IMG/VR virus record: IMGVR_UViG_2718218168_000002
Strand: one strand, 5' to 3'
Origin: a virus
Taxonomy: Duplodnaviria > Heunggongvirae > Uroviricota > Caudoviricetes
Length of the DNA: 45,859 nucleotides
Below, in pieces: positions 1-45,859 of the stretch. The notes under the pieces were generated by a model. It made no database searches and was not told the DNA's origin. It saw only the letters and a program-made list of their open reading frames with translations. The position numbers and the translations under genes are program-made. Numbering within the stretch: the stretch's first letter is position 1; each line of letters begins with the position of its first letter.

Positions 1-1248
1 ATGGCACTGAATATTCCATTCAGAAATGCGTACTATCGTTTTGCATCCAGTTACTCATTTCTCTTTTTTATTTCCTGGTCGCTGTGGTGGTCGTTATACG
101 CTATTTGGCTGAAAGGACATCTAGGGTTGACAGGGACGGAATTAGGTACACTTTATTCGGTCAACCAGTTTACCAGCATTCTATTTATGATGTTCTACGG
201 CATCGTTCAGGATAAACTCGGTCTGAAGAAACCGCTCATCTGGTGTATGAGTTTCATCCTGGTCTTGACCGGACCGTTTATGATTTACGTTTATGAACCG
301 TTACTGCAAAGCAATTTTTCTGTAGGTCTAATTCTGGGGGCGCTATTTTTTGGCTTGGGGTATCTGGCGGGATGCGGTTTGCTTGATAGCTTCACCGAAA
401 AAATGGCGCGAAATTTTCATTTCGAATATGGAACAGCGCGCGCCTGGGGATCTTTTGGCTATGCTATTGGCGCGTTCTTTGCCGGCATATTTTTTAGTAT
501 CAGTCCCCATATCAACTTCTGGTTGGTCTCGCTATTTGGCGCTGTATTTATGATGATCAACATGCGTTTTAAAGATAAGGATCACCAGTGCGTAGCGGCA
601 GATGCGGGAGGGGTAAAAAAAGAGGATTTTATCGCAGTTTTCAAGGATCGAAACTTCTGGGTTTTCGTCATATTTATTGTGGGGACGTGGTCTTTCTATA
701 ACATTTTTGATCAACAACTTTTTCCTGTCTTTTATGCAGGTTTATTCGAATCACACGATGTAGGAACGCGCCTGTATGGTTATCTCAACTCATTCCAGGT
801 GGTACTCGAAGCGCTGTGCATGGCGATTATTCCTTTCTTTGTGAATCGGGTAGGGCCAAAAAATGCATTACTTATCGGAGTTGTGATTATGGCGTTGCGT
901 ATCCTTTCCTGCGCGCTGTTCGTTAACCCCTGGATTATTTCATTAGTGAAGTTGTTACATGCCATTGAGGTTCCACTTTGTGTCATATCCGTCTTCAAAT
1001 ACAGCGTGGCAAACTTTGATAAGCGCCTGTCGTCGACGATCTTTCTGATTGGTTTTCAAATTGCCAGTTCGCTTGGGATTGTGCTGCTTTCAACGCCGAC
1101 TGGGATACTCTTTGACCACGCAGGCTACCAGACAGTTTTCTTCGCAATTTCGGGTATTGTCTGCCTGATGTTGCTATTTGGCATTTTCTTCTTGAGTAAA
1201 AAACGCGAGCAAATAGTTATGGAAACGCCTGTACCTTCAGCAATATAG
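1..1248 (+). CDS. cscB: Sucrose:H+ symporter, LacY-family MFS permease
   Basis: 415-aa ORF with a 12-TM-like hydrophobic profile; N-terminus MALNIPFRNAYYRFASSYSFLFF recalled as E. coli CscB / oligosaccharide:H+ symporter family. Not database-verified. Confidence 0.8.
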   Translation: MALNIPFRNAYYRFASSYSFLFFISWSLWWSLYAIWLKGHLGLTGTELGTLYSVNQFTSILFMMFYGIVQDKLGLKKPLIWCMSFILVLTGPFMIYVYEPLLQSNFSVGLILGALFFGLGYLAGCGLLDSFTEKMARNFHFEYGTARAWGSFGYAIGAFFAGIFFSISPHINFWLVSLFGAVFMMINMRFKDKDHQCVAADAGGVKKEDFIAVFKDRNFWVFVIFIVGTWSFYNIFDQQLFPVFYAGLFESHDVGTRLYGYLNSFQVVLEALCMAIIPFFVNRVGPKNALLIGVVIMALRILSCALFVNPWIISLVKLLHAIEVPLCVISVFKYSVANFDKRLSSTIFLIGFQIASSLGIVLLSTPTGILFDHAGYQTVFFAISGIVCLMLLFGIFFLSKKREQIVMETPVPSAI

Positions 1249-6433: not shown

Positions 6434-6566
6434 TTTTGGGAACTCCTGGCTGATTAAGTACGTCGATGAGTCGTTTCCATCCGTCACGTAATTTGCGGGT
6501 GATTCGTTCAAGTAAAGATTCGGAAGGGCAGCCAGCAACAGGCCACCCTGCAATGGCATATTGCAT
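6426..6566 (-). CDS. cIII: CIII-like protease inhibitor
   Basis: 46-aa ORF below the track cutoff: MQYAIAGWPVAGCPSESLLERITRKLRDGWKRLIDVLNQPGVPKNG, matching recalled lambda CIII; AAGGAG Shine-Dalgarno upstream. Confidence 0.65.
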   Translation of the reverse strand: MQYAIAGWPVAGCPSESLLERITRKLRDGWKRLIDVLNQPGVPKNG

Positions 6567-6645
6567 GGTGTGCTCCTTATTTATACATAACGAAAACGCC
6601 TCAAGTGAAGCGTTATTGGTATGCGGTAAAGCCGCGCTCAGGCGG

Positions 6646-14423: not shown

Positions 14424-14947
14424 CTATCAAATCAAATACGCCAGCGTCAGATAGGTATCGGCTTATTGAGGATTATCTGTATTTAGACGGAGATACAGTC
14501 AGATACAAAAAGGACTCGCTAAAACACCCCAACCACAGCCACCGGGCAGGAGATGAAATTAAAACATCGATAAATGGATCTGGGTATAGACAGGTGTGTT
14601 TTGCAGGCATTCAGATGTTTGTTCACGTAGTTGTTTTTGCGCTGCACAACAAAAGAATGCCATTGAAAAATATTGACCATATTAACGGGAACAGGCTGGA
14701 CAATTCCCCAAAAAATCTTAGGGAGGCAGGCCGGATAGCAAACAGCCGAAATCAGAAAACTAAGTGCAATAGCCGTTCTGGAATAAAAAATGTTTTATGG
14801 AACAAGCAAAAAAATAAATGGGCCGTTCAAGTGCGCACAGATTTTGGCCGGTTGTATTTTGGGCTCTATGAAGATCTTGAACTTGCTTGTTTGGTTGCCA
14901 GTGAGGCTATCAACAAATATCACGGACAATATGCGAAGGTTGTATGA
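14420..14947 (+). CDS. HNH endonuclease with AP2-like DNA-binding domain
   Basis: Internal ATG (MTIKSN) of track ORF 14393..14947; HNH motif HVVVFALHNKRMPLKNIDHINGNRLDNSPKNL; overlaps the ninB stop by 4 nt. Confidence 0.65.
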   Translation: MTIKSNTPASDRYRLIEDYLYLDGDTVRYKKDSLKHPNHSHRAGDEIKTSINGSGYRQVCFAGIQMFVHVVVFALHNKRMPLKNIDHINGNRLDNSPKNLREAGRIANSRNQKTKCNSRSGIKNVLWNKQKNKWAVQVRTDFGRLYFGLYEDLELACLVASEAINKYHGQYAKVV

Positions 14948-15474
14948 TTAAGCATAAATCAGAAACACCAAAAGAAGTTAGAGACTGCTGGCAAACACCG
15001 CTTTGGCTTTTTGATGCACTGGATATTGAGTTTGGATTCTGGCTGGATTCGGCAGCGAGCGACAAAAATGCTCTGTGTGCTCACTGGCTAACTGAGGCCG
15101 ACGACGCGCTCAATTCTGAGTGGGTAAGCCACGGTGCAATCTGGAATAACCCACCGTACAGCAATATCAGGCCGTGGGTGGAAAAAGCCGCTGAGCAGTG
15201 CATACAACAGCGACAGACGGTAGTGATGCTTGTGCCAGAGGATATGTCAGTCGGATGGTTCAGCAAGGCTCTGGAGAGTGTTGACGAAGTTCGTATTATC
15301 ACTGATGGACGGATTAATTTTATCGAACCATCGACAGGGCTGGAGAAGAAGGGAAACAGCAAAGGCTCCATGCTGCTGATTTGGCGACCGTTCATCAGTC
15401 CTCGACGGATGTTTACTACCGTATCCAAAGCGGCATTGATAGCGATCGGGCAGGGCGTCAGGAGGGCTGCATGA
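14944..15474 (+). CDS. Phage Dam-family DNA N6-adenine methyltransferase
   Basis: 176-aa ORF with the catalytic NPPY motif (WNNPPYS); ATGA start/stop overlap with the HNH gene. Confidence 0.7.
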   Translation: MIKHKSETPKEVRDCWQTPLWLFDALDIEFGFWLDSAASDKNALCAHWLTEADDALNSEWVSHGAIWNNPPYSNIRPWVEKAAEQCIQQRQTVVMLVPEDMSVGWFSKALESVDEVRIITDGRINFIEPSTGLEKKGNSKGSMLLIWRPFISPRRMFTTVSKAALIAIGQGVRRAA

Positions 15475-16316
15475 TAAATGTCGTTAGTTTCTCCGGTGGC
15501 AGGACGTCAGCATATTTGCTCTGGCTAATGGAGCAAAAGCGACAGGCAGGTGAAGACGTGCATTACGTTTTCATGGATACAGGGGCAGAGCACCCTAAAA
15601 CATATGAGTTCATCCGAAATATCGTCAGTAACTGGAAAATAGACTTACATTGCCTTCGTGTAATACCTAATCCAGAAATGGGGAAGGCCAGTAGTTATGA
15701 AGAGATAGGTGTCAATGATATTGGTCCAGATCTTATACCGTGGAAAAGGATGTTAAATAAATACGGACATCCATATATCGGCGGTGCGTTCTGTACCGAC
15801 AGAATGAAGTCTGTTCCATTCACCAAATATTGTCAGGAAAAGTTTGGGAAAGGAAATTACATCACATGGCTTGGCATTCGCACAGATGAACCAAACAGGC
15901 TTAAAAGGGCTAATGGTTTTCGGTACCTGGCTGATATAAGCGATTTTGAAAAACAGGATGTGCTTGATTGGTGGAGTGGGCAGAAGTTTGATCTTGGCAT
16001 ACAGGAGCATCTTGGTAATTGTGTTTTCTGTATAAAAAAAAGTATGCAAAAGGTTGCGCTGGCAGCCATGGATGAGCCAGAACTTGCAGATGCATTTATC
16101 AACATCCTTGATACAGAAATAAAAACAGGAAAGGAACCGGTTATGTATCGAGGGAATAATACACTTAAATCACTGATTGCCTTGTTTAGTGATATATCAA
16201 GAGATGAGTTAGCCTCAAGAATGACATCAATGCGACAGTATGATTCAGGTTCGTGTTCTGAATCATGTGAAGCATTTTCATGTCAGCTTGGATTTAATTT
16301 TGAGGATGCGGCATGA
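15471..16316 (+). CDS. PAPS-reductase-like PP-loop ATPase family protein
   Basis: Internal ATG after AGGAGG; PP-loop motif [12 protein letters not shown]; C-terminal Cys clusters; 4-nt overlap with the methyltransferase gene. Confidence 0.65.
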
Positions 16317-16495: not shown

Positions 16496-16586
16496 TTGAC
16501 GCGATGATTTATTCGGGGCTATATTCCCAGCACGCCAGCAAAATCTGGCGTCGGGATTGGAACCCCGGATAGAGACCGCGACAAAC

Positions 16587-16610
16587 ACACGCCGCGAGCG
16601 TGTTTTTTAT
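16587..16610 (+). terminator. Rho-independent terminator upstream of the ORF6N moron
   Basis: Stem acacgc/gcgtgt with loop cgcga, followed by tttttatt. Confidence 0.5.
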
Positions 16611-16769
16611 TGTCGTATGCACGCGCACATCTGAATTATGGTGGGGCGCATGGGGGAGCTGAAAAGCTCGCCGGTCGGTTTCCCGGTAGTTCCAACCCTG
16701 TGCGTCTCACCACCCGATGATTGGAACCTGACGGTGGTGATAGTTTAGAAACCACCAGAGGGCGTCATT

Positions 16770-30931: not shown

Positions 30932-31307
30932 TGTAACAGATGTGCTTTTTGACCCCGATTTTTGCGACTTCAATTTGTGGGTAACACGCCGAGTGCAAAC
31001 GGTGGATGAGGACGGGATCGGCAGCGACAGCGAAGTTAAAAAGCAGTTTGCCGGAGTCGTAACTGTTGATCGCTCTCTGGAAAACCGCCGTATGCAGGCA
31101 GGGCAGGTAATCAGCGGTGCAATTCTGATTGTGACGACTGAGCGACTGACGCAGGGACAGACTGGCCGTGATGCCGATATCGTGACGTATCAGGGCCGTG
31201 ATTATCGTGTGACTTTCGTCGACCCATATACAGCGTATGGTGCCGGATTCGTTCAGGCGCATTGTGAGTTGCTGCCGTTTGATGGGGGAATTCCGGTTGA
31301 GCAATAA
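30918..31307 (+). CDS. Hypothetical virion protein
   Basis: 129-aa ORF in the head-tail joining cluster. Confidence 0.4.
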   Translation: MPTLDVTDVLFDPDFCDFNLWVTRRVQTVDEDGIGSDSEVKKQFAGVVTVDRSLENRRMQAGQVISGAILIVTTERLTQGQTGRDADIVTYQGRDYRVTFVDPYTAYGAGFVQAHCELLPFDGGIPVEQ

Positions 31308-31845
31308 CACCAGCACAGAGCGCGGATGGCTGATACCAACCAGTGGCGATCCGGATTATGACGAAGCGCTCGACAGGCTGTTAAGCCAGTGGATGCGTAA
31401 CGTTTCCGGTCTGTCTGCCGGGATGGTTCGCCCGCGCTGGCAGAAAGAGCAGCCGCCACTGCTACCGGTTGAAACGAACTGGTGTGCGTTTGGGGTTATC
31501 GGATGGTCAGGTGATGACAGTCCGGCATTCACCAGACAGACCGATGATGGCTCTCAGCTCTGGCGGCATGAAACGATTGAGTGTATGGCTTCGTTTTATG
31601 GTCCGGCGGGGATGGTGTATGCGTCCCGGTTTCGTGACGGTATATCTGTACCGCAGAACAATGCAGCACTGAATGCGCTGGGGCTGTCTCTTGGCGATTA
31701 CACAGGTCTGACTCCCTTCCCTGAACTTATTAATCAGCAATGGGTCCGCCGCTACGATATGACGGTGCGTCTGCGCCGGAAGGTTGTGCGCGAGTACGGT
31801 ATTAAATCGCTGGTGGAAGCACCAGTCATCTTTTTCGGAGATTAA
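31282..31845 (+). CDS. Hypothetical virion protein (start uncertain)
   Basis: Internal ATG of track ORF 31237..31845; overlaps the upstream gene by 26 nt. Confidence 0.35.
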   Translation: MGEFRLSNNTSTERGWLIPTSGDPDYDEALDRLLSQWMRNVSGLSAGMVRPRWQKEQPPLLPVETNWCAFGVIGWSGDDSPAFTRQTDDGSQLWRHETIECMASFYGPAGMVYASRFRDGISVPQNNAALNALGLSLGDYTGLTPFPELINQQWVRRYDMTVRLRRKVVREYGIKSLVEAPVIFFGD

Positions 31846-31848
31846 GCT

Positions 31849-32994
31849 ATGGCACAGGGCTTGCCTGTATCAAACGTTGTTAATGTTGATGTGATCATGT
31901 CGCCGCGTGCAGCATCAGGGCGAAATTTTGGTGCATTACTCATTCTCGGCCCGTCCACAATCATTCCGGTAAGTGAGCGCATTCGTCGTTATTCTGCCAC
32001 GGAAGATATTGGAAAAGATTTTGGCGTGGAATCACCAGAATATAAAGCTGCGCAGGTGTTTTTCTCACAATCACCGAAACCTCAGGAGGTTTTTGTTGGT
32101 CGTTGGGTGAAAACGAAGGGAGACAGCGAACAGGCCACGACTGAGACGCTGGAGCAGGCTGTGAATGCCATGCTCGATTATACTTCATGGTATGGGCTGG
32201 GGATTGCAGACGATGAAGATATTCCGGATGCAGACTGGCTGAAAGTGGCTGCGGCGATCGAATCCTCTTCTGTAAGCCGTATTCTGGCGATTACGACAAG
32301 CGATGAGAAATGCCTACAGACTGCATCCAGCGATGATTTGGCATCAAAACTGAAAACCGCCGGATATTCACGCAGTTTTATTCAGTATTCATCGGGTAAT
32401 AAATACGCTGCGTTATCTGCATTTGGCCGGGCATTCACGGTTAATTTCAATGGCAGTAATACCGCGATTACGCTCAAGTTTAAGCAGGAGCCGGGTGTCG
32501 GGTATGAAACACTGACAGTCAGCCAGGCATCGGCACTTGATGCAAAAAACTGCAATGTGTTCGTGTACTACCAGAATGATACAGCTATCCTCCAGCAGGG
32601 AGTGATGGCTAACGGCGATTTCTTTGATGAACGCCACGGCCTGGACTGGTTACAGAATTATGTGCAGACCAACCTCTATAACCTGCTTTATACCAGCACC
32701 ACGAAGGTTCCCCAGACTGAAGCCGGTATTACCAGACTGTTATCAAATGTTGAAAAATCACTGGATCAGGCCGTTCAGAATGGACTGATTGCTCCGGGCG
32801 TATGGAACGGGGGCGACCTTGGCCAGTTGTCATCAGGTGACACGCTGCCCAAAGGTTATTACGTATACGCCCAGCCGCTGGATGAACAGGCACAATCAGA
32901 ACGTGAAGCCCGTAAGGCTCCGGTGATTCAGGCTGCAATAAAACTTGCAGGCGCGGTTCATTACGCTGACGTACAGATTAACGTTGTTCGCTAA
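31849..32994 (+). CDS. Tail sheath-like protein (DUF3383-like)
   Basis: 381-aa ORF followed by a tube-like gene, a frameshifted chaperone and the tape measure: the sheath slot of a contractile-tail cluster. Confidence 0.5.
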
Positions 32995-33004
32995 GGGGAA
33001 GTGA

Positions 33005-33445
33005 ATGTCTACCTATTCTTTTATGGATGTCACTGCGACGCTGACCGGGCCGACCGGTTCGATTGACCTCGGGTACGGTTCTGCAAGTTCTGAAGAGGGG
33101 ATTGTGGTTGCGATGGGCGGTCCTAAAAACACCATGACCATCGGTGCTGATGGCGAAGTGATGCACAGTCTCCATGCAGATAAAAGCGGGACGATTACCG
33201 TTAACCTTCTGAAGACATCACCGACAAATAAAAAATTGTCGCTGGCGTATAACGCACAGAGCCAGTCTTCTGCCACATGGGGGAATAACGTTATTGTGAT
33301 CCGAAACAAGGTCAGCGGCGACATCATCACGGCACGTAGTGTTGCGTTCCAGAAACAACCGGATAATGCCAACGCTAAAACCGGTAATACGATGCCGTGG
33401 GTGTTTGACTGCGGCAAGATTGACCAGGTTCTCGGGGAGTTTTAA
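33005..33445 (+). CDS. Tail tube-like protein (DUF3277-like)
   Basis: 146-aa ORF between the sheath-like and chaperone genes. Confidence 0.5.
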   Translation: MSTYSFMDVTATLTGPTGSIDLGYGSASSEEGIVVAMGGPKNTMTIGADGEVMHSLHADKSGTITVNLLKTSPTNKKLSLAYNAQSQSSATWGNNVIVIRNKVSGDIITARSVAFQKQPDNANAKTGNTMPWVFDCGKIDQVLGEF

Positions 33446-33448
33446 TAC

Positions 33449-33901
33449 ATGGAATTCGAAATCAAAGGCGTGAAATATCGCGCGGCAAAACTCAGCGTTT
33501 TTGATCAGCTGAAAGTGACCCGCAAACTTCTGCCTGTGCTGGCAGGAATGATGTCAGATTTCGGGAGCATTCGCTCCCGTTTGCCTGCTGATGGCAAAAT
33601 CGACACCGTGAAATTCGAGCAGTTAAAACCGGTGTTTGAAACCATGCTCCCGCGTATCGCTGAGGAACTGTCTTCCCTGACCGAAGATGACACCAGTGCG
33701 ATTATTCATCCCTGTCTTGCGGTGGTATCGCGGCGTCATATGGACGGATGGGTTCCGGTATTTACCCAGGGCGAACTGATGTTTGATGATATTGACTTGC
33801 TGGTCATGCTGCATCTGGTGGCGCGGGTGGTCGCCGATTCGCTGGGAAATTTTTTGCCTACACCCCTTACCAGCACGACGCAGAGCCTGCAACAGGGCTG
33901 A
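33449..33901 (+). CDS. Tail assembly chaperone (short form)
   Basis: 150-aa ORF directly upstream of the tape measure gene; slippery heptamer near its 3-prime end with an open -1 frame continuing to 34089. Confidence 0.5.
   Translation: MEFEIKGVKYRAAKLSVFDQLKVTRKLLPVLAGMMSDFGSIRSRLPADGKIDTVKFEQLKPVFETMLPRIAEELSSLTEDDTSAIIHPCLAVVSRRHMDGWVPVFTQGELMFDDIDLLVMLHLVARVVADSLGNFLPTPLTSTTQSLQQG
33850..33856 (+). other. Candidate -1 programmed ribosomal frameshift site (T TTT TTG)
   Basis: Heptamer in X XXY YYZ register relative to the chaperone frame; the -1 frame is open from 33850 to the stop at 34087-34089. Confidence 0.5.
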
Positions 33902-34078
33902 CGTTTAACAGCCTGCCTGACGGGCTGTCTTACCTTCTCAATCCGGTTGACGCCGGGTTAATTCCTTATACAGCACTTAAAGATGGCTCTGTCGATTTGT
34001 ACGACATTGCTCTCTTGAATGACCATCTGGCGGTAAAAGCGGATAACCAGCGGCGCATTGAGAAATGGAGAGAGGATA

Positions 34079-36067
34079 ATGAACGCTGAAACTATTAAAG
34101 ATTTCCTCGTCTCGCTTGGCTTCAGTGTGGATGATGCAGGAGCGAAAAAGTTCGGTTCTGTCCTCGCCGGTACAACTGCAAATGTCATCAAAATGGGACT
34201 GGCCGTTGAAGGAGCTGCGCTGTCCGTGGTGGCCTTCACGGCTAAGATCGCCTCCGGCCTGGATAATCTTTACCGGGCGTCACAGCGCACCGGCGCGACA
34301 GTCCAGGGAATTCAGTCTATTGGCTATGCGGTTTCGCAGGTTGGCGGCAGCGTGGACGCGGCGCGAACCTCTCTGGAAAGCCTCTCCCGGTTTGTTCGTA
34401 ACAATCCCGGCGCGGAAGGCTTCCTGAATCGCCTGGGGGTACAGACACGGGATGCCAGCGGTAACATGCGTGACATGGCCGCTATTTTTACAGGTGTAGG
34501 CCAGAAGCTCAGCGGCATGCCGTATTACCGGGCTAACCAGTATGCGCAGATGCTAGGCATTGACGAAAATACCCTTATGGCGATGCGCCGGGGTGTGGGT
34601 GATTTCTCCGGGCAGTACAGCGCAATGGCGAAAGCTATCGGCTTCAATGCTGACGAGGCGGCCAGAAGCTCCAACAAATTCATGACCTCCCTGCGCGAGT
34701 TCGGCGCGATGGCAGGCATGGCCCGTGACAAAATCGGCTCTAATCTTGCTGGTGGTCTGGCGGGTTCGCTGGACACACTGCGCCGCCACATCCTCGATAA
34801 CTTCCCGCGCATCGAGCAGACCCTGACGAAAGCCATAAAAGGCATTCTGGCGATCGGAGACATCATCGGGCGGCTGTTCTTCAGGCTAATTGAGGGAACA
34901 TCCAGCCTTATCACCTGGTGGCAATCGCTGGATAAGCAAACGCGGGAGCTCATCTCGCTGTTTGGCGCGCTGACGATTGCGCTGCGCATTCTGAACAGTA
35001 CGTTCTGGATGTCGCCGATTGGCCTCATTACCGCGCTGGCGGCGGGGATTGCCCTTCTGTGGGAGGACTATCAGACCTGGAAGGAAGGCGGCGACAGCCT
35101 GATTGACTGGGGCAAGTGGAAGCCGGAGGTCGATGCCGCGCTGAAGATGGTTCGTGACCTGAAAGGGTCTGTTAATGAACTGGCGAAAGCGCTGGCGAAA
35201 CTGCTCAATATTGACCCCAAATCATGGTCCCTGAAGTGGGATTTCAGCAACTTCATCGACCAGATGGGCGAATTCAGCAAAATGCTGAACATGATCGCCG
35301 ACCTGCTCAACGCTATCAAAGATGGCCGCTGGGCTGATGCCGTCATCATCGGCAAACAGATACTTAATCAGGGCAGCGAAAATCCGTCAGCGATGCCGAT
35401 GGTTACAGACAGCGCTAACAGTACTGCCGACTGGATTAAAGAGCACTGGGGATTCGATCCCCGCAGTGTGGGCCGGACGGTACGCGGCTGGTTTGGTGAT
35501 GATGAGCCGGAACAATATGCACAGGCTACGAAACGAGGAGAACGGAATAACAATCCGGGAAACCTTAATTTTGCTGGTCAGGCAGGGGCTTCTCTTGAAC
35601 GCCCGGGCGGGCGATTTGCCAGATTTGAAACTGCTTTTGATGGATTACGGGCTCTTGCTCGTCAGTTAATGCTGTACGCCGGACGGGGAATAAACAGTGT
35701 GGAGAAAATTATCTCTACCTGGGCACCTGCGTCTGATAATAACAACACAACTGCGTATATCAGGGCTGTATCGCAACGACTGGGAGTGGATCCCCGGGCT
35801 GCCCTGAATATGAGCGATCCGCAAACCATGTCAGCATTGATGAGCAGCATTATCCAGCATGAGAATGGAAGAAATATCTATTCTCGAGAGCTGATTAATA
35901 AGGCTGCCGTGGCGGGAATTAGTGGCAAAATGACAGAGGTTAACCAGCAAAATACTTACCACATTTACGGTGGCGGAGATCCGCACGCTGTCGGTAATGA
36001 GGTTGCACGTCGGCAACAGTCTGCAAATGCTCAGGTCATGCGAAGTAATCAGGTGAGGGTGGGTTAG
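34079..36067 (+). CDS. Tail tape measure protein
   Basis: Long ORF after the chaperone; ATG at 34079 preceded by GAGAGAGGA (track ORF uses TTG at 34058); alpha-helical, Ala/Gly-rich N-terminal half. Confidence 0.7.
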   Translation: MNAETIKDFLVSLGFSVDDAGAKKFGSVLAGTTANVIKMGLAVEGAALSVVAFTAKIASGLDNLYRASQRTGATVQGIQSIGYAVSQVGGSVDAARTSLESLSRFVRNNPGAEGFLNRLGVQTRDASGNMRDMAAIFTGVGQKLSGMPYYRANQYAQMLGIDENTLMAMRRGVGDFSGQYSAMAKAIGFNADEAARSSNKFMTSLREFGAMAGMARDKIGSNLAGGLAGSLDTLRRHILDNFPRIEQTLTKAIKGILAIGDIIGRLFFRLIEGTSSLITWWQSLDKQTRELISLFGALTIALRILNSTFWMSPIGLITALAAGIALLWEDYQTWKEGGDSLIDWGKWKPEVDAALKMVRDLKGSVNELAKALAKLLNIDPKSWSLKWDFSNFIDQMGEFSKMLNMIADLLNAIKDGRWADAVIIGKQILNQGSENPSAMPMVTDSANSTADWIKEHWGFDPRSVGRTVRGWFGDDEPEQYAQATKRGERNNNPGNLNFAGQAGASLERPGGRFARFETAFDGLRALARQLMLYAGRGINSVEKIISTWAPASDNNNTTAYIRAVSQRLGVDPRAALNMSDPQTMSALMSSIIQHENGRNIYSRELINKAAVAGISGKMTEVNQQNTYHIYGGGDPHAVGNEVARRQQSANAQVMRSNQVRVG

Positions 36068-36654
36068 TGGATATTCTCTCTACACTTTTTCATCAGCAGA
36101 GCAGAAAAATAGGAATGATTGTTCCCAGTGTTGTTATTTCAGAGAAGCATACAGATATGCTTGAAATAACAGAGCATCCGGTAGAGGTCGGGGCCGCTGT
36201 CGCTGATCATGCCTATAAAAAACCGTCAGAAGTGGTGATGGAGGTTGGTTTCGCCGGTGGCGGCGCATTGCTGGATTTTGCCAGTAATCTGACGGCTACC
36301 AGCCTGCTCGGCCTGAGTCCTCAGCAGACGTATCAGGAGCTACTGGATCTGCAGGAAAGCCGTATCCCCTTCGATGTGGTAACCGGTAAACGGCTGTACA
36401 GCAACATGTTGATCCGGGCGCTGGAAGTGACGACGGACAAGACAACCGAAAACGTCCTGTCCGCCGTCCTCACCCTGAGGGAGGTCATTATCTCCCGGAC
36501 ACAGCAGATTACCGTCGCGGATAAAACCAACATGAAGGAAGGGGCCAGCACGTCGGCGGTACAGAATAGAGGTAACAAAACCACAAAGCCTCCAGATACT
36601 TCACTGCTGAAAAGCATCACGGGTAACGTGGCGTCATTACTGGGAGGCGGCTAA
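36067..36654 (+). CDS. Hypothetical tail protein
   Basis: 195-aa ORF with a GTG start overlapping the tape-measure stop. Confidence 0.4.
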   Translation: MDILSTLFHQQSRKIGMIVPSVVISEKHTDMLEITEHPVEVGAAVADHAYKKPSEVVMEVGFAGGGALLDFASNLTATSLLGLSPQQTYQELLDLQESRIPFDVVTGKRLYSNMLIRALEVTTDKTTENVLSAVLTLREVIISRTQQITVADKTNMKEGASTSAVQNRGNKTTKPPDTSLLKSITGNVASLLGGG

Positions 36655-36956
36655 TGACAATTCAGGAAATTCCGCTGACAGCGGACAACCAGCAGTTCAG
36701 CATCGTCCTGGGTGGTGTCACCTGGCGGATTAGCATCATATGGCGCGATCCTTACTGGATTATGGACCTGCAGAACGACAGAGGAGAGCCGGTAATCTCC
36801 GGTATTCCTCTCGTCACTGGCGCTGATCTGCTGGCGCAGTACGCCTGTATGGGACTTGGTTTTAAGCTGTTGGTGGTCTGCGATGACAACACACAGGATT
36901 ATCCCACGAAAACTGACCTGGGCGGGCGCAGTCATTTGCTGGTATCAACGGAGTAA
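36654..36956 (+). CDS. Hypothetical tail protein
   Basis: 100-aa ORF with a start/stop overlap to the upstream gene. Confidence 0.4.
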   Translation: MTIQEIPLTADNQQFSIVLGGVTWRISIIWRDPYWIMDLQNDRGEPVISGIPLVTGADLLAQYACMGLGFKLLVVCDDNTQDYPTKTDLGGRSHLLVSTE

Positions 36957-36958
36957 GC

Positions 36959-38020
36959 ATGTCACAGAACTGGATGAGACATTTCGAGCTGCAGCTTGTG
37001 GACGGGAACGGTAAGGGAATTGAGCTAAGTGATTTCAAAGTCACCTTTACGATCGACTGGTTCAACATCAGCAGCGCGTCCCGGGTAGGGACTATCAAAA
37101 TTTATAACCTTTCGGCAGATACTGTGAACCGAATTACCGGGCAGGAGTTTTCGAAAGTGCGGCTGATTGCCGGTTACGACGGTATCGCGCCGGAGGTGGC
37201 GGCAAGCGACGTCGGGACTGTGCGTGAAGTTGACGCGGCGGACGTGGGCCAGAGTGATGGCCGCAACTACGGGCTGATTTTCAGCGGAGAAATTCGCTAC
37301 TCGGTCACAGGAAAAGACAGTCCGGTTGATACCTACGTCCTGATTCAGGCAGCAGATACTGATCTGGCATTTGCCACCAGTATAACCTCACAGACGCTGG
37401 CTGCCGGTTACACAGTCGCAGATGTGAACCGTGCGCTGATGAAAGACTTTGAGGCCAAAGGCGCGACCGAAGGACTGACACCTGAAATGCCTGCTACCGT
37501 ATACCCTCGAGGGCGGGTGCTGTTCGGCATGACACGGCATCTTATGGATAACGTGGCCGGACAATGTGGCGCAACATGGCAATTTGTGGACGGTCAGCGC
37601 CAGATGGTGGCGAATAACGAGTATGTTCACGACGCGATTGTGCTCAACAGCGCCACCGGGCTTATCGGCATGCCGCAGCAGACTATCGGTAACGGCGTAA
37701 ACGTCCGCGCTCTTATTAATCCGAACATCCGGGTTAACGGGCTTATTCAGCTGGATCAGGCTTCCGTGTACCGCACCGCGCTGTCGAACAATGATATCGC
37801 GATGGCTGGTGGGCAGATCACCGACCAGAACACAGACGGAAATATCACGCTCAGCGGCACCACAGCACAACCTGCCAGCATCGCAACGGATGGCGTTTAT
37901 ATTGTGCGCGGGATTATGTACACTGGCGATACAAGGGGCCAGGCGTGGTACATGGATATGATGTGCGAAGCGCGTGGCGCGGCGGATCTGTATACGCAAT
38001 CGGCTTTGCAAAGGGGATGA
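36959..38020 (+). CDS. Tail/baseplate hub-like protein (hypothetical)
   Basis: 353-aa ORF between tape-measure-proximal genes and the baseplate cluster; position-based. Confidence 0.45.
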   Translation: MSQNWMRHFELQLVDGNGKGIELSDFKVTFTIDWFNISSASRVGTIKIYNLSADTVNRITGQEFSKVRLIAGYDGIAPEVAASDVGTVREVDAADVGQSDGRNYGLIFSGEIRYSVTGKDSPVDTYVLIQAADTDLAFATSITSQTLAAGYTVADVNRALMKDFEAKGATEGLTPEMPATVYPRGRVLFGMTRHLMDNVAGQCGATWQFVDGQRQMVANNEYVHDAIVLNSATGLIGMPQQTIGNGVNVRALINPNIRVNGLIQLDQASVYRTALSNNDIAMAGGQITDQNTDGNITLSGTTAQPASIATDGVYIVRGIMYTGDTRGQAWYMDMMCEARGAADLYTQSALQRG

Positions 38021-43457: not shown

Positions 43458-44615
43458 TCACTCCACCTTTTCATCAATCCAGTCCGCCCACCACTGCATC
43501 ATTTCTCTGCGCTTATCTAGATACTGAGCATGGTTGTAAATACCGCGCACAGATCCGCCGTTGGCATGTGCCAGTTGCACCTCAATCGCGTCAGCAGGCC
43601 ATTCGTGCTCGTTCATAATCGTGCTAAATTCATGCCTGAATCCGTGACCGCTTTCCAGACCCTCATAGCCGATTTGTTTGATCACAAGTAGAACCGCGTT
43701 CTCGCAGATTGGCTTCTTCTTATCGTTGCGCCCGGCAAAAACAAACTCTGATACTGGTTTGGTGATGGAGCTTAGCGTAGTGAGAAGTTCAACCACCTGG
43801 TCTGACATCGGGACCACATGAATTTTGCGTCCCTTCATCACACTGGCGTCGATGGTGATAATCCTGTTTTCAAAATCGACGTTCTTCCATAGCATGGAAC
43901 GAAGCTCTTTCGTTCTTAGGGCTGTGTAGCGTAAAACTTTGGTCGCAATGAGCGATACGATACTTCCTGAAAATGTTGCCAGTGCTTTGTTGAATGCCGG
44001 GATCTGGTCTGCAGGAAGAAACGGGAAGTTCTTCTTGCGGTATCCCTTCATGGCGTCTGCAAGGTCAGGTGCCGGGTTGTATTTAGCCCTTCCGGTGACA
44101 ATAGCGTAACGGAAAACTTCGCCGCATCTTCTGCGGGCTTTGTTGGCTCGCTCCATTGCACCGCGATCTTCAAATCTGCGGATTACTTCCAGCAGTTGCA
44201 TCGGCTCAATATCCTGAATTTCAAGGCTGCCGATGATAGGTAAAATGTCGTCATCAAACATTTTTGCAAGTTCATTTGCATAGCCTACTGACCAGACTTG
44301 CTTCTTGTGCTCGTACCATTCCTTGTAAATGGCGCTAAAGGAATTGTTGTTAGACGAAGCCTTTTTCGCTTTTACCGGATCGATGCCAACCGAGATGTCT
44401 TTCCTAGCGGTCCATGCTTTATCCCTTGCCTCCTGCAAAGTCATAAGCGGATATTTTCCGACGGTCAGGATTTTCTCTTTACCGTCAATCTTGTAGCGAA
44501 GCTGCCATACCTTTTTCCCGGATACAGGAACATAAAGGTACAGGCCATTACCATCGAGAAGGCGGTATGGTTTTTCTTTCGGCTTTGCTGCTTCAATCTG
44601 CTTAACGGTGAGCAT
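43458..44615 (-). CDS. intS: Tyrosine integrase (P4/KplE1 IntS type)
   Basis: Start placed at MLTVKQIEAAKPKEKPYRL (track ORF extends to 44651); C-terminal catalytic region HGFRHEF...HANGGSVRGIYNHAQY; adjacent to argW. Confidence 0.85.
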   Translation of the reverse strand: MLTVKQIEAAKPKEKPYRLLDGNGLYLYVPVSGKKVWQLRYKIDGKEKILTVGKYPLMTLQEARDKAWTARKDISVGIDPVKAKKASSNNNSFSAIYKEWYEHKKQVWSVGYANELAKMFDDDILPIIGSLEIQDIEPMQLLEVIRRFEDRGAMERANKARRRCGEVFRYAIVTGRAKYNPAPDLADAMKGYRKKNFPFLPADQIPAFNKALATFSGSIVSLIATKVLRYTALRTKELRSMLWKNVDFENRIITIDASVMKGRKIHVVPMSDQVVELLTTLSSITKPVSEFVFAGRNDKKKPICENAVLLVIKQIGYEGLESGHGFRHEFSTIMNEHEWPADAIEVQLAHANGGSVRGIYNHAQYLDKRREMMQWWADWIDEKVE

Positions 44616-44775
44616 GGGTAAAAATCCGGTGGGTAAAATTATTTTATCCACTTTTTACCCGTCATGGAGTGCGGCTGTCAACGATCTGACGCGAACCATG
44701 ACGAACCGTGAATATACGGAAGGCTTGATATTCAGGGGATTTTGCGGACTGGTACGGATGGGAGCGAACTGATAA

Positions 44776-44851
44776 ATGGTGTCCCCTGCAGGAATCGAAC
44801 CTGCAATTAGCCCTTAGGAGGGGCTCGTTATATCCATTTAACTAAGAGGAC
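44776..44851 (-). tRNA. argW: tRNA-Arg (anticodon CCU)
   Basis: Minus-strand cloverleaf: acceptor GTCCTCT/AGGGGAC, D stem GTTA/TAAC, anticodon stem AGCCC/GGGCT with loop CTCCTAA, T arm GCAGG-TTCGATT-CCTGC, discriminator A, CCA. Confidence 0.9.
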
Positions 44852-44926: not shown

Positions 44927-45859
44927 TTATGCTGGGTTTTTATCATTTTTCTTAATGTTTTCCGCACGTTCTGCTTTTTGGCGTGCTTCTGCTTTACGCT
45001 TGTTGCTCATGTCGTTACGAATCTGTGCATGACTCATTAACGCGAAGATAAAGGTGCCGCCGCAGATGTTCCCCGCTAAAGTAGGTAGTGCGAAGGGCCA
45101 GATGAAATCGCTCCAGTGCAGCGTGCCGTTAAACACCAGATAGAGGATTTCAACAGAACCGACAACGATGTGGGTGGTGTCACCCAGTGCAATAAGCCAG
45201 GTCATCAATATAATCACCACAATCTTTGCCGCACCCGCAGCAGGAAACATCCAAACCATAGTGGCGATCAGCCAGCCGGAAATGATCGCGTTGGCAAACA
45301 TCTCGCTGGGGGTGTTCTTCATCACATCCATGCCGATTTTGACAAATGCATCGCGAGTTTCTTCATTGAAGATAGGCATATATTCAAATGCCCATGCAGC
45401 AATACCTGTCCCGAGAATATTACCCAGCAGCACGACGCCCCATAATCGCATAAGTAAGCCGACGTTGCTCATTGTCGGTTTTTGCATGACGGGTAGTACC
45501 GCAGTCACGGTGTTTTCGGTAAATAATTGCTGGCGGGCCATAATGACGATAATAAAACCAAAGGTATAACCGAGATTCTCCAGTAAGAAGCTGCCTGGCA
45601 CTCCTTCCAGTTCGACATGAAATATCCCTTTTGCCAGTAGCGAAGCGCCCATCGACAGACCCGCCGCAATGGCTGACCACAGTAGCGCCATTGCGTCGCG
45701 TTCCAGCTCTTTTTCACCATCCTGGCGGATATGCTCATGAATTGCCATCGCCCGGGAGGGGAGTCGATCTTCATCTATTTCTATTTTTTTGCCGCGCTCT
45801 TTTTCTTCGCTCTCAACTTCAATTTCGTCGCTGTGTTGATCAATTTTGTCGTTGTCCAT
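44927..45859 (-). CDS. yfdC: Formate/nitrite-transporter-family inner membrane protein YfdC
   Basis: 310-aa ORF starting exactly at the window end; multi-TM with acidic N-terminus MDNDKIDQHSDEIEVESEEKERG; recalled as the K-12 neighbour of argW. Confidence 0.75.
   Translation of the reverse strand: MDNDKIDQHSDEIEVESEEKERGKKIEIDEDRLPSRAMAIHEHIRQDGEKELERDAMALLWSAIAAGLSMGASLLAKGIFHVELEGVPGSFLLENLGYTFGFIIVIMARQQLFTENTVTAVLPVMQKPTMSNVGLLMRLWGVVLLGNILGTGIAAWAFEYMPIFNEETRDAFVKIGMDVMKNTPSEMFANAIISGWLIATMVWMFPAAGAAKIVVIILMTWLIALGDTTHIVVGSVEILYLVFNGTLHWSDFIWPFALPTLAGNICGGTFIFALMSHAQIRNDMSNKRKAEARQKAERAENIKKNDKNPA

Follow-up and report, generated by a model that had tools for sequence, protein, structure and literature searches.

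Tail chaperone frameshifts in described phages and the locus of this prophage

The tail chaperones of phages lambda and P2 are close counterparts of the one considered here. In the lambda model (gpG/gpGT, ratio about 30:1) the tape measure protein is the partner of the G domain, and the tail tube protein that of the T domain (PMC5009743). The shift producing gpE and gpE+E' in the FETUD tail operon of P2 is likewise reported as established (PMC3091744, PMC5009743), while the shift at the same site in the present locus is predicted. According to the criteria of Xu, Hendrix & Duda (2004), in the form in which PMC5009743 and PMC3091744 summarise them, a G/GT-type frameshift is recognised by two overlapping open reading frames between the tube and tape measure genes, by a slippery sequence in the overlap and in the register of the upstream frame, and by conservation of both among diverged relatives. 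Such a gene is further expected to yield both products, with the long one at a fixed low ratio; the two would be needed for building the tail but missing from virions, and the long one would link the tape measure and tube proteins. One described relative is Klebsiella phage Mulock (MN098327), whose depositors annotated a joined CDS named 'tape measure chaperone frameshift product' (a computational annotation); its genome announcement mentions neither frameshift nor chaperone, and the SEN34 paper does not discuss the chaperone.

The locus described here lies in a window of 45,859 nucleotides, the whole stretch of DNA analysed, from a SEN34-like (Brunovirus-related) temperate myovirus carried as a prophage by E. 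coli. With a probability that we put at about 0.9, its tail chaperone gene contains a programmed -1 ribosomal frameshift, as the first-pass annotation had proposed from the letters of this DNA. The proposal is supported by gene position, the slippery site and its conservation, suppressed synonymous variation, coding in the -1 frame, and a two-domain protein encoded by a single open reading frame in distant relatives.

Table 1. Features of the tail gene segment, in positions of the window.
Feature	Position	Strand	Content	Evidence
Tail sheath gene	31849..32994	+		Pfam DUF3383 (E 7.8e-101); phrog_205 'tail sheath' (E 1.6e-135)
Tail tube gene	33005..33445	+	RefSeq name 'DUF3277 family protein'	Pfam KPP10_Orf10 (E 8.8e-61)
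Tail assembly chaperone gene, 0 frame	33449..33901	+	150 aa, 16.7 kDa; TGA 33899-33901	ORF list and translation
GGGTGG, Shine-Dalgarno-like patch	33825..33830	+	codons CGG GTG G	reduced synonymous variation
Slippery run GGGAAATTTTTTG	33844..33856	+	G_GGA_AAT (33844), A_AAT_TTT (33847), T_TTT_TTG (33850-33856)	consecutive, in register
-1 frame extension	33856..34089	+	77 codons (AYTPYQ...KWREDNER), TGA 34087-34089	translation
DUF6889 domain (PF21829)	33964..34080	+	-1 frame, fusion residues 173-211	Pfam
Tape measure protein gene	34079..36067	+	662 aa from ATG 34079	phrog_2276 (E 3.5e-281)

The genes follow one another in the order sheath, tube, chaperone and tape measure (Table 1), and the sheath gene shows that the module is of the contractile-tail type. 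The chaperone matches Phage_TAC_15 (PF21822) over residues 6-136 with 103.6 bits against a gathering cut-off of 22; its PHROG match is phrog_1688 'tail assembly chaperone', with an E value of 4e-61. Between the tube and tape measure genes there are thus two overlapping open reading frames, the chaperone frame and a -1 frame running to 34089, and the slippery sequence falls where the two overlap and is in phase with the upstream one. The tape measure start is the RefSeq start mapped from an E. coli locus of 99.8% identity and is preceded by GGAGAGAGG at 34067-34075. The scan of positions 31000-37000 gave no promoter-like site on the + strand and one terminator-like match (33940-33959), which has a weak T tail and is situated inside the coding extension.

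The resemblance to P2 is close in layout. Both phages have a contractile tail, the order tube, chaperone, -1 extension and tape measure, an identically phased heptamer TTTTTTG (GGT TTT TTG in P2, AAT TTT TTG here), and a -1 stop overlapping the tape measure ATG (ATGAGTAA in P2, ATGAACGCTGA here). P2 differs in the size of its products (E 91 aa and E+E' 142 aa, against 150 and 213 aa), in the distance from heptamer to stop (21 nt against 42 nt) and in not having the two extra overlapping heptamers. From lambda comes the mechanistic model applied to the chaperone here, and G_GGA_AAT is one base off the lambda heptamer G_GGA_AAG. Lambda is however a siphovirus. Its T extension has about double the length of the one here (GT has 279 aa), and AAG, the last codon of its heptamer, works far more efficiently in the A site in E. 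coli (PMC4066793). At the level of protein families no relationship was detected: the P2 E families gave no Pfam match at E <= 0.01, and a comparison with E/E' gave a phmmer E value of 0.08 and a hhalign probability of 0.65%; lambda G/T gave no Pfam match and a hhalign probability of 0.19%. The arrangement of lambda G/GT and P2 E/E-prime invoked in the first-pass annotation therefore holds for layout and mechanism and not for descent, and the chaperone is an analogue of these proteins rather than a member of their families. Mulock, by contrast with both, has the same protein families, the same GGGAAATTTTTTG run and a -1 extension of 78 codons against 77, at 67% nucleotide identity and in a different host.

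The slippery site and its conservation

The codons at the site are GGA (33845), AAT (33848), TTT (33851) and TTG (33854), which places T_TTT_TTG in the canonical X_XXY_YYZ register. From this heptamer to the 0-frame stop there are 42 nt, followed by the TGA, in agreement with the 45 nt originally counted to the end of the gene. All open reading frames of at least 100 aa in the window were scanned, spurious shadow frames among them, and hold 56 in-register heptamers. Apart from the three of the chaperone site, five have a -1 frame extending at least 30 codons beyond the 0-frame stop; none is a candidate, because four are in shadow frames and the -1 frame of the fifth runs into the next gene. 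G_GGA_AAC at 15351, considered as a second candidate, was rejected, its long -1 frame being simply the next gene.

Conservation was determined on 77 non-redundant loci, one genome per species, with 44-85% chaperone identity. The diversity of this set comes from a scan of genome contigs with alignment; a scan of viral contigs returned near-identical loci only (97-100% identity), which are uninformative on conservation. T_TTT_TTN is present in register in 76/77 loci, 33-48 nt before the 0-frame stop, A_AAT_TTT in 68, G_GGA_AAT in 63 and all three heptamers in 62, so that the third and last of the consecutive heptamers is the conserved core. The -1 extension (75-82 codons) is kept in 75/77 loci, so that diverged relatives preserve the shift site as well as the layout in two frames. 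The +1 frame usually shuts within a few codons and stays open for tens of codons in a minority of loci. Three loci have a -1 frame stop directly before the T run, and the frame switch must therefore occur on the T run.

Selection at the site is also evident at the level of codons. The normalised codon entropy at N134, F135 and L136 is 0.00, 0.00 and 0.04, corresponding to AAT in 69/69, TTT in 74/74 and TTG in 69/70 loci, while for the other conserved residues of the gene it is about 0.3-1.0 and mostly above 0.5. Elsewhere in these chaperone genes Phe is encoded about half by TTT and half by TTC, and Leu mostly by CTG. A second stretch of reduced synonymous variation is the GGGTGG patch, situated 13 nt upstream of G_GGA_AAT and 19 nt upstream of T_TTT_TTG: R126 is encoded by CGG in 46/68 loci, where other Arg positions favour CGC, and V127 by GTG in 68/75 loci (entropy 0.29). 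GGGTGG may act as a stimulator of the shift.

No downstream stimulatory RNA structure, which the first-pass annotation had suggested looking for, was found. The fold of the 44 nt 3' of the heptamer is no better than that of shuffled sequences (z -0.17), the same applies to downstream segments of 44-141 nt folded one sequence at a time (z -0.17 to -1.7), and RNAalifold on 52 loci gave no consensus downstream structure (-0.97 kcal/mol). The hairpins at 33908-33928 and 33940-33959 are clean stems; they begin 51 and 83 nt downstream and were rejected as stimulators for being too distant. P2 is similar in this respect, as no downstream hairpin is reported for it (PMC3091744).

A homopolymer run may also shift the frame during transcription, with RNA polymerase stuttering on the six T's and adding a U to some transcripts, from which the fusion is then translated normally; this is an established route to chaperone-type fusions (PMC5009743). 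One locus (L168, encoding protein P0001) is a genomic T7 variant in which the frames are fused exactly as by an added U. Slippage by bacterial RNA polymerase is not known on runs as short as six and typically requires at least eight, whereas the run is of six T's in 72/77 loci, of seven in four and interrupted in one, and never exceeds seven despite the strong selection on the site. In addition the flanking G of TTG is kept in 71/77 loci, as fits the heptamer rule, and for P2 the shift at the identical heptamer is taken to occur in translation (PMC3091744). We regard transcriptional slippage as very unlikely.

The -1 frame extension and its annotation

The -1 frame is open from 33796 and continues for 77 codons after the slip to the TGA at 34087-34089, close to the 80 codons first estimated, and it overlaps the tape measure start by 11 nt, which agrees with the overlap noted at that time. 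Among the relatives this overlap is 4-22 nt in nearly all cases and 11 nt in 50. The predicted fusion has 213 aa and 23.9 kDa. Its -1 frame part matches DUF6889 with an E value of 8.9e-20 (70.6 bits against a gathering cut-off of 23.9), and phrog_4364 matches fusion residues 161-213. The entropy of the -1 frame at codon positions 1, 2 and 3 is 0.74, 0.60 and 1.40, the third being about twice the other two, which is a coding-type substitution signature. None of the papers found in a literature search mentions DUF6889, NCBIfam holds no model for either the chaperone or the extension, and a profile search of PDB sequences gave no match; an AlphaFold2 model of the fused P0001 (50-sequence alignment) averaged a pLDDT of 41, which is not good enough for searching by fold.

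In distant relatives (34-41% identity; P0143, P0225, P0237, P0245, P0252; L165-L167) a single open reading frame encodes Phage_TAC_15 and DUF6889. The two domains are the same and in the same order, and the junction aligns free of gaps; the difference is that one frame encodes both, in a gene without the T run. In L165 and L166 a separate chaperone-only gene precedes the chaperone-like gene carrying DUF6889, and two genes therefore do the job of one gene plus a frameshift.

Public databases treat the extension differently. RefSeq (PGAP) gives a separate 'DUF6889 family protein' CDS at 33925-34089 with a CTG start; the extension is a stand-alone CDS in every E. coli match listed (15 of the 314 records holding the region) and likewise in other Enterobacterales entries, under the name 'DUF6889 family protein' or 'NTP pyrophosphohydrolase' and with a length of 43-78 aa. 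These entries, and the ATG which many relatives have at the 'LMRPV' position, would suit an independent small gene of about 54 aa, translated without any frameshift from its own and possibly non-canonical start. Against it stand the starts themselves: in the window this frame holds no ATG, GTG or TTG giving an ORF of at least 40 aa, close relatives are annotated with six or more different starts, mostly non-ATG, and any ATG, GTG or TTG before the conserved LPDG motif is found in just 14/75 loci, at no conserved position. It is from the T run onwards that the frame is open and the protein conserved, and the annotated CTG comes 23 codons later. Furthermore, an independent gene leaves unexplained both the total loss of synonymous variation at AAT TTT TTG and the gap-free single-ORF fusions of the distant relatives. 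It is less credible again than slippage in transcription, and the comparison exposes the stand-alone listing as a systematic annotation error with arbitrary starts.

Premature stops in the -1 frame, whose presence in related phages the first-pass annotation had named as grounds for giving up the proposal, occur in only two of the 77 loci (L118, L151). The chance presence or decay of a heptamer and an open -1 frame without function, with only the 150-aa chaperone mattering, could appeal to these stops, to the T run broken to AAT ATT TTG in a Salmonella locus (L102, where the -1 frame is still kept) and to the fact that many prophages are defective, but it is effectively refuted by conservation in about 75 species, the Pfam-level domain in the -1 frame, the coding-type substitution pattern with synonymous suppression at the site, and the isolated phages on record with 97.8% identity in the region.

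Proposed mechanism and meaning for the phage family

Under a programmed ribosomal shift, most ribosomes would read the 0 frame from 33449 to 33901 and release the 150-aa Phage_TAC_15 chaperone, while a minority would slip one base back on the T run. The likeliest event would be a slip at U_UUU_UUG, at 33850-33856, with UUU held by tRNA-Phe in the P site and UUG by tRNA-Leu in the A site, and the two overlapping upstream heptamers may add to the slippage. Either the A_AAU_UUU heptamer, which overlaps this one, or the U_UUU tetramer could also be the true slip site. Slipped ribosomes would pass the 0-frame stop, add the 77 residues with DUF6889 and end at 34087-34089, just within the tape measure gene, so that the long form would have its N-terminal domain in common with the short one. 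The efficiency is probably a few percent. The heptamers listed as most efficient for E. coli do not include U_UUU_UUG (PMC4066793), and for this reason the efficiency may be low.

Analogy with lambda gpG/gpGT and P2 gpE/gpE+E' suggests that the tape measure protein would be coated by the domain that both forms share, and that the rare long form would use its extension to bring in the tube protein and so start polymerisation; neither form would stay in the virion. The tube protein would accordingly by this analogy be the partner of the DUF6889 domain.

A more specific reading is possible but tentative, namely that the 13 nt form a compound shift site and that DUF6889 is the tube-recruiting 'T domain' of a large lineage of enterobacterial myoviruses. 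Slippage would then be spread over adjacent codon pairs of GGGAAATTTTTTG, which is kept at synonymous sites in 62/77 species, and two junction isoforms, ..GNFFA.. and ..GNFLA.., would be made; the conserved GGGUGG 13-19 nt upstream would contribute to tuning without a downstream RNA structure. If this is true, RefSeq lists the 'T domain' as a gene of its own, and distant relatives obtain it from a second gene instead of a frameshift.

Taken by itself the arrangement is real and ordinary, being well known for long-tailed phages and, as a frameshift, already annotated in Mulock. The tail module probably has the usual two-product chaperone and is probably functional. To phage biology this adds a routine confirmation. 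The programmed shift would, beyond that, assign a function to DUF6889, an orphan Pfam family, as the C-terminal domain that Phage_TAC_15 chaperones gain by frameshifting, and the loci of about 75 species would provide a natural data set for low-efficiency, structure-independent -1 frameshifting in enterobacteria, with a compound slippery run and with two-gene relatives that are free of the frameshift.

Slippery site and reading frames

The chaperone gene runs through the codons CTG GGA AAT TTT TTG CCT (L G N F L P), whose phasing (AAT TTT TTG) places T_TTT_TTG in the canonical X_XXY_YYZ register. The heptamer is followed by 42 nt and then by the 0-frame stop TGA (33899-33901), while the -1 frame contains no stop from 33796 onward and, read after the slip, extends for 77 codons. 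As its stop lies at 34087-34089 and the tape measure ATG, preceded by GGAGAGAGG, at 34079, the extension and the tape measure gene overlap by 11 nt. The ORF and codon check confirms the first-pass annotation on the heptamer position, its distance to the chaperone stop, the long open -1 frame and the overlap with the tape measure start. Overlooked there was that T_TTT_TTG is the last of three successive in-register heptamers.

Features of the window related to the frameshift, the tail module and the prophage borders
Feature	Position	Strand	Remarks
LacY-family symporter gene	1-1248		left border
Lambda CIII thermoregulator element	6521-6579	-	Rfam, above gathering score
isrK sRNA, C4 antisense RNA and its a1/b1 targets (cluster)	16519-16717	+	Rfam, above gathering score
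Neck terminator gene	31237-31845
Sheath gene	31849-32994		DUF3383, phrog_205
Tube gene	33005-33445		KPP10_Orf10 (= DUF3277)
Chaperone gene	33449-33901	+	150 aa (ORF list, translation); Pfam Phage_TAC_15, 103.6 bits; phrog_1688
GGGTGG (CGG GTG)	33825-33830		13-19 nt upstream of heptamers; reduced synonymous variation across species
G_GGA_AAT, A_AAT_TTT, T_TTT_TTG	33844-33856	+	GGGAAATTTTTTG
T_TTT_TTG	33850-33856	+	X_XXY_YYZ register
-1 extension	stop TGA 34087-34089	+	77 codons, translation after slip: AYTPYQHDAEPATGLTFNSLPDGLSYLLNPVDAGLIPYTALKDGSVDLYDIALLNDHLAVKADNQRRIEKWREDNER
Tape measure gene	34079-36067		phrog_2276, E 3.5e-281
Integrase gene	43458-44651		right side
tRNA-Arg(CCT)	44777-44851		right side
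Formate/nitrite-transporter-family gene	44927-45859		right border

Within the Dam methyltransferase gene (14944-15474), G_GGA_AAC at 15351-15357 is also in register and followed by a long open -1 frame. As the open frame corresponds to the following gene (PAPS-reductase-like, 15381-16316), this is more probably a plain gene overlap than a second frameshift.

Conservation of the site and coding of the extension

The conservation scan used a chaperone alignment and one genome per species; it returned 80 loci at 37-85% protein identity, chiefly from Enterobacterales. With three phage loci and the window added and duplicates dropped, 77 motif-containing loci were compared. Of these, 76 have T_TTT_TTN in register, 33-48 nt ahead of the 0-frame stop; the final codon is TTG in 71, TTT in 4, TTA in one and TTC in one. 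A_AAT_TTT is present in 68/77 loci, G_GGA_AAT in 63/77 and all three heptamers together in 62/77. An extension of 75-82 codons is found in 75/77 loci, and in nearly all of these 75 it overlaps the tape measure gene by 4-22 nt. In most loci the +1 frame is shut within a few codons of the stop, while a minority keep it open over tens of codons. Only two of the 77 loci (L118 and L151), which could be decayed copies, contain the premature -1-frame stops that had been named beforehand as evidence against a frameshift. The sole locus with a broken T run (AAT ATT TTG; L102, Salmonella enterica s1, around 1593-1605) keeps G_GGA_AAT and an intact -1 ORF of 77 codons; this copy may have been disabled recently, or may use the upstream heptamer for its shift.

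Most conserved residues of the chaperone gene show a normalised codon entropy of 0.5-1.0: Phe 18, 105 and 112 are encoded by TTT and TTC in near-equal shares, Asn83 by AAC in 42 loci and by AAT in 20, and Leu mostly by CTG. The site codons are AAT in 69/69 (entropy 0.00), TTT in 74/74 (0.00), TTG in 69/70 (0.04) and GGA in 68/75 (0.27). Selection acts on the nucleotides of the site, beyond the amino acids, and as the controls come from the same sequences the contrast goes beyond shared ancestry. A second, weaker dip in synonymous variation is found at R126 and V127, where CGG GTG gives GGGUGG; the CGG is unusual against the other Arg positions of the gene. This hexamer resembles the upstream Shine-Dalgarno-like stimulator of dnaX and, judged from the sequence, may have the same role here.

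The -1 product matches Pfam DUF6889 (E 8.9e-20; 70.6 bits, cut-off 23.9) and phrog_4364, so that the -1 frame is a coding sequence and no chance open frame. Past the 0-frame stop entropy by -1 codon position is 0.74, 0.60 and 1.40, and protein conservation begins exactly at the junction, with ARTPRQRD. RefSeq and older annotations systematically treat DUF6889 as a separate gene. RefSeq (PGAP) has a stand-alone 54-aa "DUF6889 family protein" with a CTG start (33925-34089; 2026-2190 in locus L001), and public-database entries vary from 43 to 78 aa with six or more different start points, many under the apparently baseless name "NTP pyrophosphohydrolase" and others as "DUF6889 family protein". 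No ATG, GTG or TTG in the window gives a -1-frame ORF of at least 40 aa, and a canonical start ahead of the conserved LPDG motif is present in only 14/75 loci, with no position in common. The frame switch is pinned to the T run by three loci in which a -1-frame stop directly precedes it. None of the papers searched mentions DUF6889.

An exhaustive search with the fused sequence against 1.84 billion representative proteins returned distant relatives of 191-210 aa (34-41% identity) spanning both halves, several of which pass the Pfam cut-offs for both Phage_TAC_15 and DUF6889. They align to the conceptual fusion with no gap across the junction (e.g. ..DSLARFLAYEP.. versus ..DSLGNFLAYTP..), and these single-ORF relatives are independent evidence for the existence of the two-domain protein. 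In a metagenomic lineage (L165, 1989-3130; L166, 577-1718) the chaperone alone has a gene of 167 aa, and DUF6889 is carried by a 209-aa chaperone-like gene behind it that has no T run, hence two genes and no frameshift. The locus L167 (2501-3133) carries a two-domain ORF without T run after a 674-aa tape-measure-like gene, the reverse of the usual chaperone and tape measure order. One E. coli phage contig from public sequencing data (L168) is nearly identical to the window but has seven T's, not six, at 1902-1908, joining the frames into a single 213-aa ORF (P0001; cluster of 16 member sequences); the extra T may be a true mutation or a sequencing error in the homopolymer. Close viral contigs have six T's in 78/80 cases, the other two being unmatched by the search pattern. 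The structure predicted for the fused chaperone reaches only pLDDT 41, too low to assign a fold.

Mechanism of the proposed shift

A ribosomal -1 shift on the T run, to which we give a probability of about 0.9, would yield a 23.9-kDa fusion beside the 16.7-kDa chaperone. The conserved site and layout, the DUF6889 match, the codon constraint and the fused relatives all support the two-product chaperone frameshift of tailed phages proposed in the first-pass annotation. Given a ribosomal shift, we lean towards tandem slippage at U_UUU_UUG. Alternatively, the slip would occur at the overlapping A_AAU_UUU heptamer or the U_UUU tetramer, giving the junction ..GNFFA.. and not ..GNFLA..; both belong to more efficient classes. 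Loci that have lost the other two heptamers (L114, L115, L133, L149, L151, L154-L156) still keep the T run, and this conservation points to the run as the essential element.

In systematic measurements in E. coli, H_HH.U_UU.Y and V_VV.A_AA.R are among the most efficient heptamers, tetramers rank A_AAG > U_UUY > C_CCY, and the best-working motifs permit cognate A-site re-pairing (PMC4066793). U_UUU_UUG is absent from the most efficient motifs listed (PMC4066793), so that a low shift efficiency is expected, in keeping with the rarity required of the long form of the chaperone. Lambda has a short to long ratio of about 30:1, and in P2 the shift is two to three times as frequent as in lambda (PMC5009743).

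Neither shuffle folds nor RNAalifold revealed the downstream stimulatory RNA structure whose search had been recommended: folding of the 44 nt after the heptamer is on a par with that of shuffled sequence (z -0.17), and 52 diverse loci share virtually no consensus structure (-0.97 kcal/mol). Longer stretches reach z of about -1.6 to -1.7 owing to two hairpins, which begin 51 and 83 nt downstream, too distant to pause the ribosome at the site. The second of these, an 8-bp hairpin inside the extension (AATCCGGTTGACGCCGGGTT, 33940-33959), was scored as resembling a terminator, though its T tail is weak; it is conserved in part, but overlies the conserved RPVDAG peptide. The window agrees here with P2, which has no structure after its TTTTTTG heptamer (PMC3091744).

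Tail module, prophage and known systems

The neighbourhood is a contractile-tail module, continued past the tape measure gene by genes for a Dit-like protein, a Pam3_gp18-like plug and the baseplate hub. The C-terminal region of the tape measure protein (about aa 442-649) matches endolysin and transglycosylase PHROGs, and for several E. coli genomes RefSeq lists the protein as a lytic transglycosylase, so that a wall-degrading domain appears to be part of it. The window is a prophage with an integrase gene; it adjoins tRNA-Arg(CCT), and the layout of the border genes suggests integration at this locus. The region is found in 314/5426 complete E. coli genomes, with 97.8% identity to four Escherichia phage records named vB_EcoM and 77% to SEN34, a temperate Salmonella myovirus whose regulation is lambda-like (PMC5261728). 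The Rfam RNAs are immunity and regulatory elements of lambdoid and P1-like types in one prophage.

The comparison with P2 E/E', also recommended earlier, shows a closely matched arrangement: heptamer, register, contractile tail, the order tube, chaperone, extension and tape measure, and an extension stop overlapping the tape measure ATG. Homology to P2 E+E' or lambda GT was detected neither by Pfam (no match) nor by phmmer (E 0.08) or hhalign (probability 0.65% and 0.19%, respectively). The element thus works like the P2 and lambda systems but lies outside their protein families, belonging to Phage_TAC_15 and DUF6889. In a relative, Klebsiella phage Mulock, the frameshift is already annotated in GenBank, but not mentioned in the phage's paper. 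The finding is real, yet the expected arrangement for a long-tailed phage. It adds a conserved compound run of three heptamers and a possible upstream Shine-Dalgarno-like element, and it gives DUF6889 a role as the domain encoded through the frameshift in the Phage_TAC_15 chaperone lineage.
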